From assembly GCA_002426575.1 (NCBI GenBank), contig DIRE01000063.1, forward strand, positions 32,401 to 78,384: DNA of 45,984 nucleotides. Direction: 5' to 3'. Shown in pieces: positions 8,776-18,140 of this stretch. The position numbers and the translations under genes were made by a program. The stretch comes from Clostridiaceae bacterium UBA5444 (GTDB lineage Bacteria > Bacillota > Clostridia > Clostridiales > Oxobacteraceae). The notes below the pieces were generated by a model. That model saw nothing but the letters and a program-made list of their open reading frames with translations, did no database searches and was not told the DNA's origin. Numbering within the stretch: position 1 is the stretch's first letter; each line of letters starts with the position of its first letter.

Positions 8776-8807
8776 ATGCCATTCCCTAGCAAAGGGGATG
8801 GCATTTT
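8773..8807. other. 14-bp stem-loop (aaaatgccattccc tagcaaa ggggatggcatttt) located exactly where the homology to the araC leader breaks; possible terminator or insertion-boundary structure
   Basis: Inverted repeat seen directly; followed on the plus strand by aagttactttttctc. Confidence 0.5.
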
Positions 8808-8917
8808 AAGTTACTTTTTCTCTACAGAAATCCAAATCTTTATATATCGTTTTTCAACGTCGGGGATACTATGCTTCTTGACTTTGGCTGCTCACATTTG
8901 TTGGGAGCATTTTTATT

Positions 8918-11900
8918 TTATTTCACTATCAGCCCTAAAAGCTTCTGCTCAATCGACTTGCTCACAGCTGACTCTCCCCCAAATATTGTAGCGTCTTTTA
9001 TATTTTTTGTTTTTAAATAATCAACTACATTGTCTGATAGGTCTTTGTCTGTCAATATAATCGGAGCATTGCAGTTTGCAGCATATACGCTTCCTGCAAG
9101 GGCATCTGGAAAGTCATTTCCTGTTGCTATACATATATTTTGTCCATATAAATTAAAGTATTTTGCGACATTAAGGGAAGTTTCGTACCTGTTTGCGCCG
9201 CCTATTCTTATCACATTGGCCATATCTATTGATGCTATTTCTGCTGCCTCTTTCTCTACATTCCTTGATATTGCTCCTTCTGATCCTATTATATATATAC
9301 TGCTAGGCCTTATCTCCTGAATTTTTTTACGTACTGCTTCATTTATTTCATCCTTGTTGATTAAAAGTATTGGACTTTTCATTATAGCTGCAATGCTGCT
9401 TATAGATAATGCATCTGGGTAATTATCTCCGTTTACAAGTATAACAGGAGTACCCGTCTTCGCATTCAAGCTATCTGCTATTTTTACCGCTGTTTCATAT
9501 CTATTTGCTCCGCATATTCTCTTTATACTGTTGAAACCTGAGGCAGATATTTTCTTTTCAAATGCACTGTCTATAACTCTTACGCCTCCAAGTATATATA
9601 CTGTACCTGTATTGTCCATATTTTCTTTCATATAGTTTAATACTTTTTGCTGGTCTCCATCTGAACTTCCAACCAAAAGTATCGGAGCATTAAGCTTATA
9701 TGCAAGCACACTTCCTGAGAGTGCATCAGGATAATTACCTGCAGTTGCCAGTATTACATTTGAAACCTTTCCTATATAACTTGCCTTTGCTATTTCAATT
9801 GCAGTGTCCACCCTGTTTAATCCCTGAAGCCTTTTTACTTCTACCGTAATCTGATCAGGAATATAGGAGCCCCCACTCCAATCTCCCCCTGAATTTGCAT
9901 TAGAAACAGTTACCGTACATGTATCGATAAATCCTCCATCTGCTGTGGTTACCTTTATGGTAGCTGTTCCTGCAGATATAGGTGTTATCACCCCGTTACT
10001 ATCTACGGAAGCAACTGATGGTTTATCGGAACTCCAAGTTATATTCTTGTTAGCTGCATCTGCTGGGCTTACTGTTGCTGTTAACTTTTCTGTTGCTTCT
10101 CCTGCAGTTAAGTTTATTTCCTTTTTGTTCAGGCTTACGCCCTTTACTGCTATAGGTGTTGGTACTTCCGTTACAGTTACTGTGGTACTCTCAGTACTCT
10201 TTGCACCTTTGTCATCAATGATGGTCAGTTTCACGGTATATGTTCCTGCTTTTGAATATGCATGGATTGGATTAGCCGACGTGTCAGTTGCTCCATCGCC
10301 AAAGTCCCACAGGTATGATGCTATTGTTCCATCCGGATCACTTGATCCTTCACTGCTAAATGCTATTGCACTTCCCGTTGTTCCGGTATATGGTCCGTTA
10401 ATCTTTACAATAGGCGATTGATTTACAGCATCTTCTGGAAGAGTTACATTTATAGTATATGGTGCTGTATCACCCTCCATTTTATATAACTTCAGATAGT
10501 ACTTGCCTGGTGCTGCATCATAACTGCCTATAAGCTGGGTGTCAGTCATTTGGGTAGCATATGCCACATAGTCATTAGTATTGCTTTCTTTAAATAATAG
10601 CCAGTTTACTATAGTATGATCAGCTGTTACCGTTATATCCACCATTCCTGGTGAAGTAACATTAAAATAGAATATATCCTGAATATCATTTGATGTAAAT
10701 TCCCCGGTTACATCGACATTATTTTTTATAGGTCCGTTAGCCTGATCAAACCAATCATTGGGTTCGGTCTCCGTCGTTATTCCGGTATTTGTAAATTCTG
10801 TTACAGTAGCTATGGTACTCTCAGTACTTGATCCACCTTTATCATCAATAATAGTCAGCTTCACGGTATATGTCCCTGCTTTTGAATATGCGTGGGTTGG
10901 ATTAGCCGACGTATCAGTTGTTCCATCGCCAAAATCCCACAGGTATGATACTATTGTTCCATCTGGATCATTTGATCCTTCGCTGTTAAATGTTATTGCA
11001 CTTCCCGTTGTTCCGGTATATGGTCCGTTAATCTTTATAATAGGTGATTGATTTGCAGCGTCTCCTGGAAGAGTTACATTTATAGTGTATGGTACTATAT
11101 CCTCCTCTTTAAACTTATATAATTTTAGGTAGTACTTACCCACTTCTGCATCATAACTGCCTGGAAGCTGGGTGTCAGTCATTTGACCGTTGGCCCATGC
11201 TACCCAATTATCGGTATCGTTTTCTTTAAATAATAACCAGTTTACTTTAGTGTGATCAGCTGTTACCGTTATATCCACCATTCCTGGCGAAGTAACATTA
11301 AAATAGAATACATCCTGACCATCACCTAATGTAAGTCCCCCAGATACGCTTGTATTACTTGTTATAGGCCCATTAGCCTTGTTAAACCAATCATTAGGCT
11401 CCGTTTCCGCTGCTATTCCGGTATTTGTAACTGTCACTGTAGTACTCTCAGTGCTTAATCCACCTATATCATCGGTGATAGTCAATGTCACAGTATATGG
11501 CCCTAATTTTGCATATGCATGGGTTGGATTAGCCGATGTGTCAGTTGCTCCATCACCAAAGTCCCACAGGTATGATTCCATAGTCCCGTCTGAATCGGTA
11601 GAACCTTCACTGCTGAATGTTATTTTATCTCCTAATACTCCAGTATATGGCCCGTTAATCTTTACAGCAGGCGGTTCGTTTGTAGTTCCATCCTGTTTAG
11701 GAAATGCACCATGGAACACCACATCATACTGGAACCTATTTGAACTATCTACGCTATAGTTTACAAAATAACATGTGAGCGTTTTATAACCATTCCATGA
11801 ATCCTTTGCCAGTTTATTGAGAAAACCATTGGCCAAATCATTCATTGCCTTCCAATCATTAAGCTGCCCCTGCGTTGCTGCCCCAGTATATGTGCCTCTT

Positions 11901-17200: not shown

Positions 17201-18012
17201 TCAGCATAACCTTTACCTGTAGCAATATATACTTTATTAAAACTCAAATCTGAAAAAGCCTTCATAACAGCAACATTTGTACTATACCTATCATTTCCAG
17301 ACAGAACTTTTGAGTTGGGTATAAGATTTTTAACTGAATCACTTATAACACCATTCCCGCCAATTATAAATGTATTTTTGATTTCTTTTGAAGAAAGGAA
17401 TGAAGTAACACCATCTGGTAGGTTATCCTTCTTAGTCAATAGTATAGGCATTCCTCTATAAGCAGCGATTGAAGATATTGACAATGCATCGGCAAAAGAT
17501 TCATCTGAACCATTTGCAAGCACAGCTTCAGTGATTGTCCCAAGTTTTTCTTCTACTTGTTCTGCAATCTTTAATGAGGTAGCATATCTGTCGTTTCCGA
17601 ATATACGATTAGTTGATATTCCTTTGGATTTGATTAAATCTTCTATTGTCTGAGGTATAACGCCTGTCCCACCTATTATAAACGCATTTTTTGTGCCAAG
17701 GGATGAAAGATAATTTAATACATCAGAATTTTGGCCTTTAGGATTTATTAATATAATTGGTGCATTATACGCTTTTGCCAGCGGGGCAGCACACAATGCA
17801 TCAGCCGAGGACTCACCTGTTACCAATACAACAGTATCGGCTGACTTCCATCCAGCCTTAACAATGTTTAAGGATGTCTCATATCTGTTATCCCCGCCAT
17901 ACCTAATTGATATATTTTTTGCTGCATTAGTTGATGCAAAAGCTGCTACATTAAATGTTGATAAGCAAAAAACGAGAACAATCGAGATTAAATTAATACA
18001 CTTTTTTCTCAC
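14287..18012 (-). CDS. Secreted M6-family (immune inhibitor A / InhA-like) zinc metalloprotease with three N-terminal CWB2 cell-wall-binding repeats, an acidic repeat linker and a C-terminal beta-rich domain
   Basis: GTG start with RBS aaaggagag. Signal peptide. CWB2 repeats (GDNRYETSLNIVKAGW; GNDRYATSLKIAEQV; GNDRYSTNVAVMKAF). Zinc motif LFAHEYGHYLGLPDLYG (HExxH, M6-like) at nt ~16235-16252. 1241 aa. Confidence 0.8.
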   Translation of the reverse strand: MRKKCINLISIVLVFCLSTFNVAAFASTNAAKNISIRYGGDNRYETSLNIVKAGWKSADTVVLVTGESSADALCAAPLAKAYNAPIILINPKGQNSDVLNYLSSLGTKNAFIIGGTGVIPQTIEDLIKSKGISTNRIFGNDRYATSLKIAEQVEEKLGTITEAVLANGSDESFADALSISSIAAYRGMPILLTKKDNLPDGVTSFLSSKEIKNTFIIGGNGVISDSVKNLIPNSKVLSGNDRYSTNVAVMKAFSDLSFNKVYIATGKGYADALAGSVLAAVTSSPIVLVNSNIPYDTKEFLKDSMSVNSSIVVLGGTAVVPDNIVTDLEKVIKAIADQQTQIPIGGGSGSYTPPEYHDHSLDFVPNEPGEVQVTVKPLVIAMDFTDYNHEDIDDKEDWRINNFEGKDCTPELYNNMFFGEDFYKGSDEGSYISINKFIKEESRGTVEVKGGVHGWYPASREAAYYGSNEDWKEQNRTCDLVREALDAVAKDPNINLADYDVEDPYDYNNNGNYFEPDGEIDCIVVIHPGLGEEFGGGSLGEDAIWPFRSALTWYDNNPKHEVTDTKGNKLKADNFLAIEQDIPVDLFAHEYGHYLGLPDLYGRGQVPVEYWSLMGGSYTGSLRGSKPNSYGAFCKDLLQEIFDKKGVKTNWQKKETLNLADINENGVDVILDQATLNGKNNSALRIDLPDRTDQIIDYKSNAYYSGIKNSANESAITSIDLLNIPKGSEIKLEFDTWYDIEQDWDYASVQVKDSKEGGFVSISGNITTTDNPNDDTPNDLTDRNPGYGITGKSNEWIKAEFDLSQYAGRSISLKFYFWSDTNTPNTGIFIDNIKVTAKVLPGDAEGDSKPEPVEIVPNEQEVLSDNAEVDSKPDPIEVTPSDKDVLPDDTEEDSKLDSIEATPIEKVIFFDDAEGNPKFDLDGFTVSVNGERTYKHYYMLEWRNYDNGLVDKGLYDVTSFWEELKYDPGLIIWYVNEKFGDPRDSKGRPDQAVVDHPGYCSVGIVDADQEPISYKDEHTLPWLEYVTYQMHDAAFSLKDSSAFTKVWGNAYVTKDPSTNMIPVFDDSLKYDSPSGHECGLNLASYGLKIFVTAENKDRSVAKIHIMKGTKNDAAPIYDSDVLNSIKIKNTYIQDGYIYVDTEGNLADTAKMTYVTTMDRIYGDGSVKTIHFNNEINLTRTAGGLYRAKIADSFSAMDLPYGEWKPGFIVLSDKDGNTKAFYNMHANYGYGMDLSNLNVNKK
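15267..15495. repeat. Three tandem repeats of roughly 66 bp encoding an acidic linker in the M6 protease (DAEGDSKPEPVEIVPNEQEVLS / DNAEVDSKPDPIEVTPSDKDVLP / DDTEEDSKLDSIEATPIEK)
   Basis: Repeat seen at both the protein and nucleotide level (aggctttgaatc...acaggttc units). Confidence 0.75.
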
Positions 18013-18140
18013 TTCTAAACTCTCCTTTCTTAATAGCCCTCCCTTGTATATCTGATTTTATATTTTGTTAATCAGTCACCCCCTCAAAACTACATTCAAG
18101 TGTTAAACTGATACTGAAACTGAATATTTTTCATGAACGG

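Follow-up and report, generated by a model that had tools for sequence, protein, structure and literature searches.

The window analysed here is the whole stretch of 45,984 nucleotides (nt) from Clostridiaceae bacterium UBA5444 (assembly GCA_002426575.1, contig DIRE01000063.1, positions 32,401 to 78,384, forward strand). Its segment 8776-18140 carries only two large genes, both on the minus strand, for an M9 collagenase and an M6 InhA-like metalloprotease, and it is bracketed by direct repeats of a composite unit made of a promoter, a stub of an araC regulator gene and a hairpin. These flanking repeats belong to a three-copy family, called cassettes A, B and C below, of which C precedes the complete regulator gene araC3. 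We read the repeats as diverged paralogues of one regulatory module and not as the ends of a mobile element, and give this local duplication account as a whole a probability of about 65%. According to this reading, the repeats would not be a recent scar left by a mobile island but old remnants, by now fixed, of a local duplication with gene loss.

Three copies of one regulatory region

The cassettes, the hairpins behind them and the genes that they adjoin are the following (SBP, solute-binding protein; ABC, ATP-binding cassette; GH, glycoside hydrolase).

8582-8778, plus strand: cassette A, which reproduces the whole regulatory region between araC3 and SBP3 and ends in an araC remnant
18142-18347, plus strand: cassette B, a 91-nt promoter part followed by araC nt 1-116
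18142-18232, plus strand: promoter half of cassette B, the araC-proximal 91 nt of the promoter, with block 1 at 18147-18173
18233-18347, plus strand: araC pseudogene stub in cassette B, spanning codons 1-39 and interrupted by a stop at codon 22 and an indel, HTH domain absent
25381-25563, plus strand: cassette C, the intact and slowest-evolving divergent regulatory region, preceding araC3
25564-26418, plus strand: araC3 (Pfam AraC_binding, HTH_AraC, HTH_18), the sole complete AraC-family gene of the three units
8772-8808, both directions: hairpin T_A, 16 pairs, -24.1 kcal/mol on the plus and -21.9 kcal/mol on the minus strand, z about -5, U-rich tails
18345-18400: hairpin T_B, -33.7 kcal/mol on the minus strand, z = -5.1, followed by U9
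7272-8579, minus strand: SBP1 (Pfam SBP_bac_1), leading gene of ABC sugar operon 1, its transcription directed away from cassette A
6244-7185 and 5396-6247, minus strand: permeases of ABC sugar operon 1 (Pfam BPD_transp_1)
18481-25377, minus strand: operon of locus 3, with an alpha-galactosidase-like gene, a GH gene, two permeases and SBP3 (Pfam, blastn); orthologue of the related loci L028 and L053

Cassette A comprises an SBP leader with its ribosome-binding site, a conserved block (block 1, about 8677-8703), the araC -10 region (8734-8743) and a terminal araC remnant of about 15 nt (8763-8776, araC nt ~13-27, codons ~5-9); the araC ATG was lost via a 12-nt deletion between two AATATT repeats. 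Cassettes A and C align over 183 nt without gaps at 74% identity (75.6% and 73.1% in the two halves). This similarity, unseen in the initial annotation, begins 2-3 nt from the SBP start codons and runs to the araC start. SBP1 and SBP3 give no BLASTP match with each other, the permeases of the two operons are just 25-29% identical, and A-C homology is confined to the intergenic region. Thus, only the regulatory region of about 180 bp was copied, and the idea of two paralogous sugar loci fails for the structural genes.

The promoter half of cassette B is 72.5% identical to C and 71.6% to A, and its overlap with A (8672-8764 versus 18142-18232) shows 72% identity. The best-conserved parts, in register in all three cassettes and at the same distance from the araC ATG, are the upstream block about 60-93 nt before that ATG and the extended -10 box, of which B keeps a perfect example, TGGTATAAT, at 18205-18213. 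The core sequence of the cassettes is ATGGAKTWATYTAYYAYNNAYATGGTRTAAT; a 31-nt degenerate core has exactly three matches in the window, with 0 expected. The SBP leader shared by A and C gave no RNA family match and no conserved fold (-1.5 kcal/mol), and Rfam had no gathering-level match in the window, 8500-9000 and 17950-18520 giving noise only (E >=0.15).

In cassette B the homology continues into the regulator gene. The stub reads MGSSIEHIINEMGNIDLNVYW, then a stop and a 1-2-nt indel, after which residues 22-40 follow in another frame; tblastn recovers residues 1-20 and 22-40 in two frames (E = 4e-6). It is 76.3% identical to araC3 nt 1-116, and nothing is recognisable beyond codon ~39, in line with the stop-interrupted 5' fragment described initially. 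Over the first 60 nt its differences from araC3 fall at codon positions 1/2/3 as 4/6/5, a small sample, and the stub is most simply a neutrally decaying araC pseudogene.

Both relics end at hairpins of one type. The stem-loop first noticed at the left boundary is T_A, and a homologous hairpin after B, T_B, had gone unseen: 8784-8817 and 18367-18400 are identical at 27/34 positions, covering the loop, the right arm and the tail, and 0/1000 shuffles reached this score. The stems of T_A and T_B are both fully paired despite left arms that differ in sequence. T1, the hairpin type concerned, has the sequence CCCTAGCWAAGGG. T_A is a predicted bidirectional terminator, which would end the collagenase transcript and stop read-through from the dead araC promoter; T_B is the predicted intrinsic terminator of the alpha-galactoside operon.

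Could the flank similarity be a chance product of AT-rich promoter DNA, or reflect convergence towards promoter and terminator elements of a general kind? The window consists of AT-rich clostridial DNA, and the conserved pieces include an extended -10 box, hairpins and T-runs, all of them generic. However, dinucleotide-preserving shuffles never came near the observed local alignment scores (z = 14 for A-B, 43 for A-C and 44 for B-C; for A-B a score of 35 against 12.4 +/- 1.6), nor those of the hairpins, the register is ungapped over 79-183 nt, and in B the similarity extends into araC coding sequence at the E-value given above. We regard chance or convergence as having practically no probability. 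The flanks are therefore homologous direct repeats of an araC promoter and 5'-gene region, as initially described with nearly right coordinates, whose limits are refined here; the flank alignment lies far above chance, and no related strain with an intact araC at this position was found.

The arrangement is present throughout the species as sampled. At 99-100% identity, the same sequence is found in >20 metagenomic contigs, fermentation being one of the sources, and in one metagenome-assembled genome (MAG) at NCBI, and every species contig sampled carries the protease segment with its repeats. Both junctions are spanned at 99-100% identity by independent JGI, ENA, Logan and NCBI contigs, which the initial annotation had not seen. 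Hence, the arrangement is not an assembly artefact.

Age and origin of the copies

All sub-segments of the A-C, B-C and A-B comparisons are 72-76% identical, functional and non-functional parts alike, and the hairpins are 79% identical. In a seven-way alignment A is 72% and B 70% identical to C, the range among A, B and C being 64-72%, whereas the orthologous regions of the related loci L028, L021 and L027 share only 53-62% identity with A and B. The three cassettes are thus closer to one another than to the regions of relatives, so the copies arose inside this lineage. Private changes number 18 in A, 19 in B and 9 in C, and outgroup-polarised sites support the pairs AB, AC and BC with 2, 5 and 2 sites. 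An attempt to establish with outgroups how A, B and C branched was dropped, as there were too few informative sites. Taken together, the counts of private changes and the lack of polarised support for any pair point to an old and nearly simultaneous origin, with C as the constrained copy.

Relatives of the source locus were found through araC3. AraC3 homologues 74-75% identical adjoin alpha-galactosidase genes in two kinds of locus. In the first (L028, L029 and L053), GH36, an alpha-galactosidase gene, a GH gene, two permeases and SBP3 are divergent from araC; these loci show 77-80% nt identity (blastn) to window 18491-26360 and lie in a different genomic neighbourhood. In the second (L027 and L033), M24, GH36 and an alpha-galactosidase gene are divergent from araC. 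A GH36 gene is present in all relatives and missing from the window. The proteases, a B-like stub and a T1-type hairpin were sought in the loci of L028, L053, L027 and L033, and none was found.

By LpdA, the nearest named relatives of the window are C. thermobutyricum and C. baratii, at 67-69% amino acid (aa) identity. While the sugar locus reaches 77-80% nt identity in other organisms and contexts, no LpdA homologue exceeds 69% aa identity, and this difference suggests that the sugar locus is laterally shared. In a sister species, contigs L021 and L023-L025 end 126-209 nt upstream of araC (L021:1-209, compared with L022 and L028), and the L021 sequence differs from about 85 nt upstream of the araC ATG onward, which points to another variable junction or rearrangement within the same promoter region. 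The same sister species (L021 and L022, ~5080-10850) carries a group II intron-type reverse transcriptase gene (RVT_1, 646 aa) that interrupts nrdD.

Several assignments of the hairpins were tried against these relatives. Behind T_B the alpha-galactoside operon has a further hairpin.

18427-18450: hairpin 2, -17.5 kcal/mol, with a motif ATTAGGGAG...CTCCCTAAT common to L028:597-640 and L053:581-612

Hairpin 2 appears to be the 3' hairpin native to the alpha-galactoside locus, kept in L028 and L053; its local-alignment support is marginal, with 58/1000 shuffles reaching the score. The proposal that T_B was the native terminator of locus 3 was withdrawn, since L053 has hairpin 2 only at that spot. 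An extra hairpin at this position in L028 belongs to an insert of about 290 nt (~309-600) and has no significant similarity to T_A or T_B. This insert lies between a Lys-rich 45-aa open reading frame (ORF) and the GH36 terminator, is absent at the L053 spot, and holds at L028:305-490 (plus strand) an ORF-less match to HEARO, the omega-RNA of IscB (81.7 bits, gathering 83, E = 7e-17). T1 was also tried as the native terminator of araC and was not found downstream of araC in L021, L027, L028 or L033. The junction of stub and hairpin is therefore common to A and B only.

In the origin that we propose, the source module would be that of locus 3, where araC3 is divergent from an ABC-transporter/glycosidase operon and the araC3-operon spacer of about 180 bp would hold both promoters and the conserved upstream block. 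After this lineage had separated from its nearest relatives, two further copies of the module would have arisen in the same 17 kb, a short time apart. Each extra copy may then have lost its redundant araC by deletion down to the shared type of hairpin, that is, to terminators that had to stay, leaving in A a promoter, a 15-nt stub and T_A, and in B half a promoter, a 116-nt stub and T_B. Non-allelic or illegitimate recombination among the duplicated regulator modules, through a tandem-duplication joint, a duplication-insertion or a gene replacement inside a duplicated unit, would have put the protease pair between relics A and B, which is why the pair is bracketed by direct repeats. The event would be old and fixed in the species. 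Recombination between duplicated regulators had been named as one possibility from the start, and it is the most economical source of the structure.

Two sub-scenarios can be distinguished. The common junction of stub and hairpin favours one event, in which a unit of half promoter, stub and hairpin would have been duplicated around the protease block by Campbell-type integration, or by a tandem-duplication joint with later deletion. The equal three-way divergence favours a near-simultaneous triplication with later gene replacement.

A refined form of the insertion first suggested for this segment has to be weighed here. In this single duplication-insertion, an ancestor with SBP1 and an araC stub followed by T1, divergent from one promoter and next to the alpha-galactoside locus, would have received the proteases through Campbell-type recombination of a circular DNA carrying half promoter, stub and T1, or through tandem duplication followed by deletion. 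This would have left about 260 bp duplicated on either side of the insert, of which copy A would later have lost about 110 nt. Such a history accounts for direct repeats that agree in orientation and in composite make-up at the two ends of the segment, and for a stub-hairpin junction that is seen in A and B and absent from C and from the relatives; it also needs fewer events than a triplication with two gene replacements, and neither protease has a close homologue in other organisms. Yet at 72% in the promoter and 79% in the hairpin, A and B are no more alike than A and C or B and C (73-76%), the derived sites uniting A and B do not exceed chance, no circular or plasmid copy is known, and the composition and codon usage of the proteases are native. 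The event would be ancient anyway, so a delivered island could hardly be told from an internal rearrangement. We consider this history unlikely on balance, and the most serious competitor of local duplication and gene loss.

The preferred account, local duplication followed by gene loss, has points against it. The stub-hairpin junction shared by A and B argues that they are sister copies from one event, in which case the initial view of an insertion flanked by a duplication is essentially right; against such a single event, the pairwise distances do not make A-B the closest pair. The burst of copying is read from few sites in three short sequences. Selection on A or B beyond the neutral level is not demonstrable, and both AraC3 binding and promoter activity are inferred. 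Neither an empty site nor an intermediate arrangement was found in any relative, the relatives being distant (SBP1 <=49%, LpdA 69%), and this absence bears on the duplication-insertion as well. Of the initial proposal of an insertion or rearrangement between duplicated loci, the rearrangement among regulator modules stands, and the signature of a recent insertion falls with repeats of 72-79% identity among which A and B are not the closest pair.

The protease segment and its neighbourhood

The segment is almost filled by its two genes, as the initial annotation had stated; they occupy 8,880/9,365 nt and leave intergenic pieces of 110, 215 and 129 nt.

8918-14071, minus strand: cell-wall-anchored M9 collagenase (Pfam Peptidase_M9_N, M9, ColG_sub, PKD x3, PPC, Big_2, CWB2 x3)
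14287-18012, minus strand: cell-wall-anchored M6 InhA-like metalloprotease (Pfam CWB2 x3, Peptidase_M6, InhA-like MAM and VEG)
18013-18141, minus strand: unique region of 129 nt upstream of inhA, with ribosome-binding site AAAGGAGAG, in place of the SBP-proximal half of the cassette

Both proteins have signal-peptide-like N-termini. The collagenase carries the zinc motif HESTH at residue 528, with Peptidase_M9 at 189.8 bits and M9_N at 154 bits, and is called with 1711 aa from an internal ATG in other assemblies; the InhA-like protease carries HEYGH at residue 589, with Peptidase_M6 at 210.6 bits. All three scores are above the Pfam gathering scores. The best homologues elsewhere reach 49-52% for the catalytic part of the collagenase and 36% for the InhA-like catalytic domain, and no alternative genomic context for the pair was found, no homologue of the InhA catalytic part exceeding 36%. 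Within the collagenase gene, 10159-11715 consists of a unit of about 630 nt repeated three times in tandem at 71-89% identity, which encodes the repeated PKD/PPC modules. A 13-nt deletion at 17635-17647 frameshifts inhA in two same-species assemblies (L045 and L048, the MAG GCA_036826775.1 and an ENA contig); this could mean that some strains can do without the protease, or it could be an error of assembly.

The region 18013-18141 has no similarity to cassette A or C, and presumably contains the inhA promoter. The 215-nt spacer between inhA and the collagenase gene contains on the minus strand, at 14110-14160, a hairpin CTGGAGAACC...GGTTCTCCAG with no clear U-run, and some assemblies call a 46-aa ORF in this spacer; the two protease genes may be transcribed separately or attenuated. 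Relics of sugar genes were sought in the intergenic pieces of the segment, and none was found except the araC stub.

The segment had been taken for an accessory protease island. The protease genes have a GC content of 0.37-0.38, and 0.28-0.30 at third codon positions, within the host range, and their codon-usage distance of 0.064-0.076 shows no deviation from the other genes (0.059-0.126). Every sampled strain carries the proteases. These results do not support an accessory island, and no empty site was found. A mobile element, such as a transposon, an integrative and conjugative element, a prophage remnant or an insertion sequence (IS) composite, could in principle have brought the proteases, with the repeats as att sites or target-site duplications. 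Direct repeats around accessory-looking secreted enzymes would fit this, and the orphan HEARO at the equivalent 3' end of the L028 locus indicates that IS200/IS605-type elements visit the neighbourhood. On the other side, no recombinase, integrase, transposase or other mobility gene lies within the segment, as already noted initially, nor is there room for one. No recombinase, integrase or transposase gene lies among the flanking SBP1 and alpha-galactosidase-like genes, and ARAGORN found no tRNA or tmRNA in the window. Near-identical flanks were not found either: the repeats, derived from a host promoter and gene, are separated by indels of 12 and about 100 nt besides their 72% (promoter) and 79% (hairpin) identity. 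Neither HEARO nor another RNA family is present at A or B, and there is neither a compositional signal nor a presence/absence polymorphism among the species contigs. A mobile origin therefore appears very improbable.

Homologues of SBP1 were sought for an alternative arrangement. A scan of 185,579 species genomes gave best homologues at 45-49%, none >49%, with no AraC3-like gene beside them, and a metagenome scan gave nothing >46%. As neither the proteases nor SBP1 have close homologues in the collections, there is no usable empty site. LpdA itself reaches only 69%, so the apparent species specificity of the proteases says little.

The remaining gene order of the window frames this region as follows.

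Left end of the gene order, minus strand: lplA, lpdA and CMD
Right of araC3: a terminator, then gcvPB, gcvPA, gcvH and gcvT

CMD (window 4896-5249), lpdA and lplA form a conserved module in C. thermobutyricum and C. baratii, with a MarR gene before it; in the window, the SBP1 ABC operon takes the MarR position, and the glycine-cleavage genes are 21 kb away. A split glycine-cleavage operon, with 4.8-26.4 kb as one island between gcvPB and lpdA, was considered and rejected: in C. thermobutyricum and C. baratii, MarR-CMD-lpdA-lplA stands as a separate module to which gcv is not adjacent. Hence, CMD belongs to the lpd module, and no empty site is definable. Elsewhere in the window, 31425-31529 contains at least 4 tandem 21-nt units within ORF 31118-31558, which has weak coiled-coil-type Pfam matches only.

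Possible roles and comparison with known systems

Cassette A would serve the SBP1 operon as its working promoter, leader and ribosome-binding site, and the conserved block may in each of the three copies still be a target of the single AraC3. AraC3 probably senses alpha-galactosides. About 140 nt upstream of inhA, relic B keeps the conserved upstream block and the perfect extended -10 box. It is conceivable, if rather doubtful, that relic B is not inert and that AraC3, acting through it, co-regulates both wall-anchored metalloproteases with the two sugar-uptake operons. In a variant, the promoter of B, the stub and T_B would be expected to form a unit yielding a small RNA of about 150-180 nt, or an operator decoy.

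If B is active, a regulon would have been made by copying one promoter cassette of 180 bp before unrelated operons. Moreover, if AraC3 controls the proteases, this fermentation-associated Clostridium would couple its secretion of the collagenase and the InhA-like protease to the sensing of plant oligosaccharides. The structure itself is an ordinary kind of genomic scar, with the mild twist that one promoter cassette stands before three unrelated operons, the proteases included. It offers an example of promoter-cassette duplication, in which one regulatory region came to precede three unrelated operons and the redundant regulators were lost; this is one route of regulon growth. For genome scans it carries a caution, as direct repeats around accessory-looking genes need not mean a mobile island. 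The giveaways of decayed host paralogues are a third copy, equal divergence among the three and a pseudogene pattern of substitutions.

MsmR of Streptococcus mutans and RafR of S. pneumoniae are AraC/XylS-family regulators of alpha-galactoside (raffinose/melibiose) genes, divergent from the operon. AraC3 resembles them in having an AraC_binding and two HTH_AraC domains and in standing head-to-head with a Melibiase/GH36 operon (in the window and four related loci), with or without an ABC transporter. Unlike those systems, the regulatory region is here present in three copies, two of them without a regulator gene, and the ligand and operator are putative. Literature on AraC and alpha-galactoside regulation in clostridia offered nothing specific to this locus.

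The proteases share family domains and HExxH motifs with clostridial M9 collagenases of the ColG/ColH type and with M6 InhA of Bacillus thuringiensis/cereus, and each has three CWB2 repeats as in the CWB2-anchored Cwp family of surface proteins of Clostridioides difficile. In contrast to those families, an M9 or M6 catalytic unit joined to a CWB2 triplet is unusual; the activity is predicted, at best identities of 52% and 36%.

Same-orientation host repeats of a hundred to a few hundred bp, which need no recombinase, are also left by Campbell-type (single-crossover) integration and by tandem-duplication joints. Repeats of that kind start out identical, whereas those around the protease segment have an identity of 72-79% and do not resemble each other more than they resemble the third copy; neither a donor molecule nor an empty site is known for this segment. 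A further likeness is to the regulator pseudogene relics and orphan promoters that remain when a segment is duplicated and the redundant copy is lost, with which the present case shares a truncated and stop-interrupted 5' stub, changes spread evenly over codon positions and an intact paralogue nearby. It differs from the usual relics of this kind in the homologous terminator hairpins at which its two relics stop, in the unrelated gene pair enclosed between them, and in the copied unit, which comprises no more than the regulatory region and meets a non-homologous SBP gene at its start codon.

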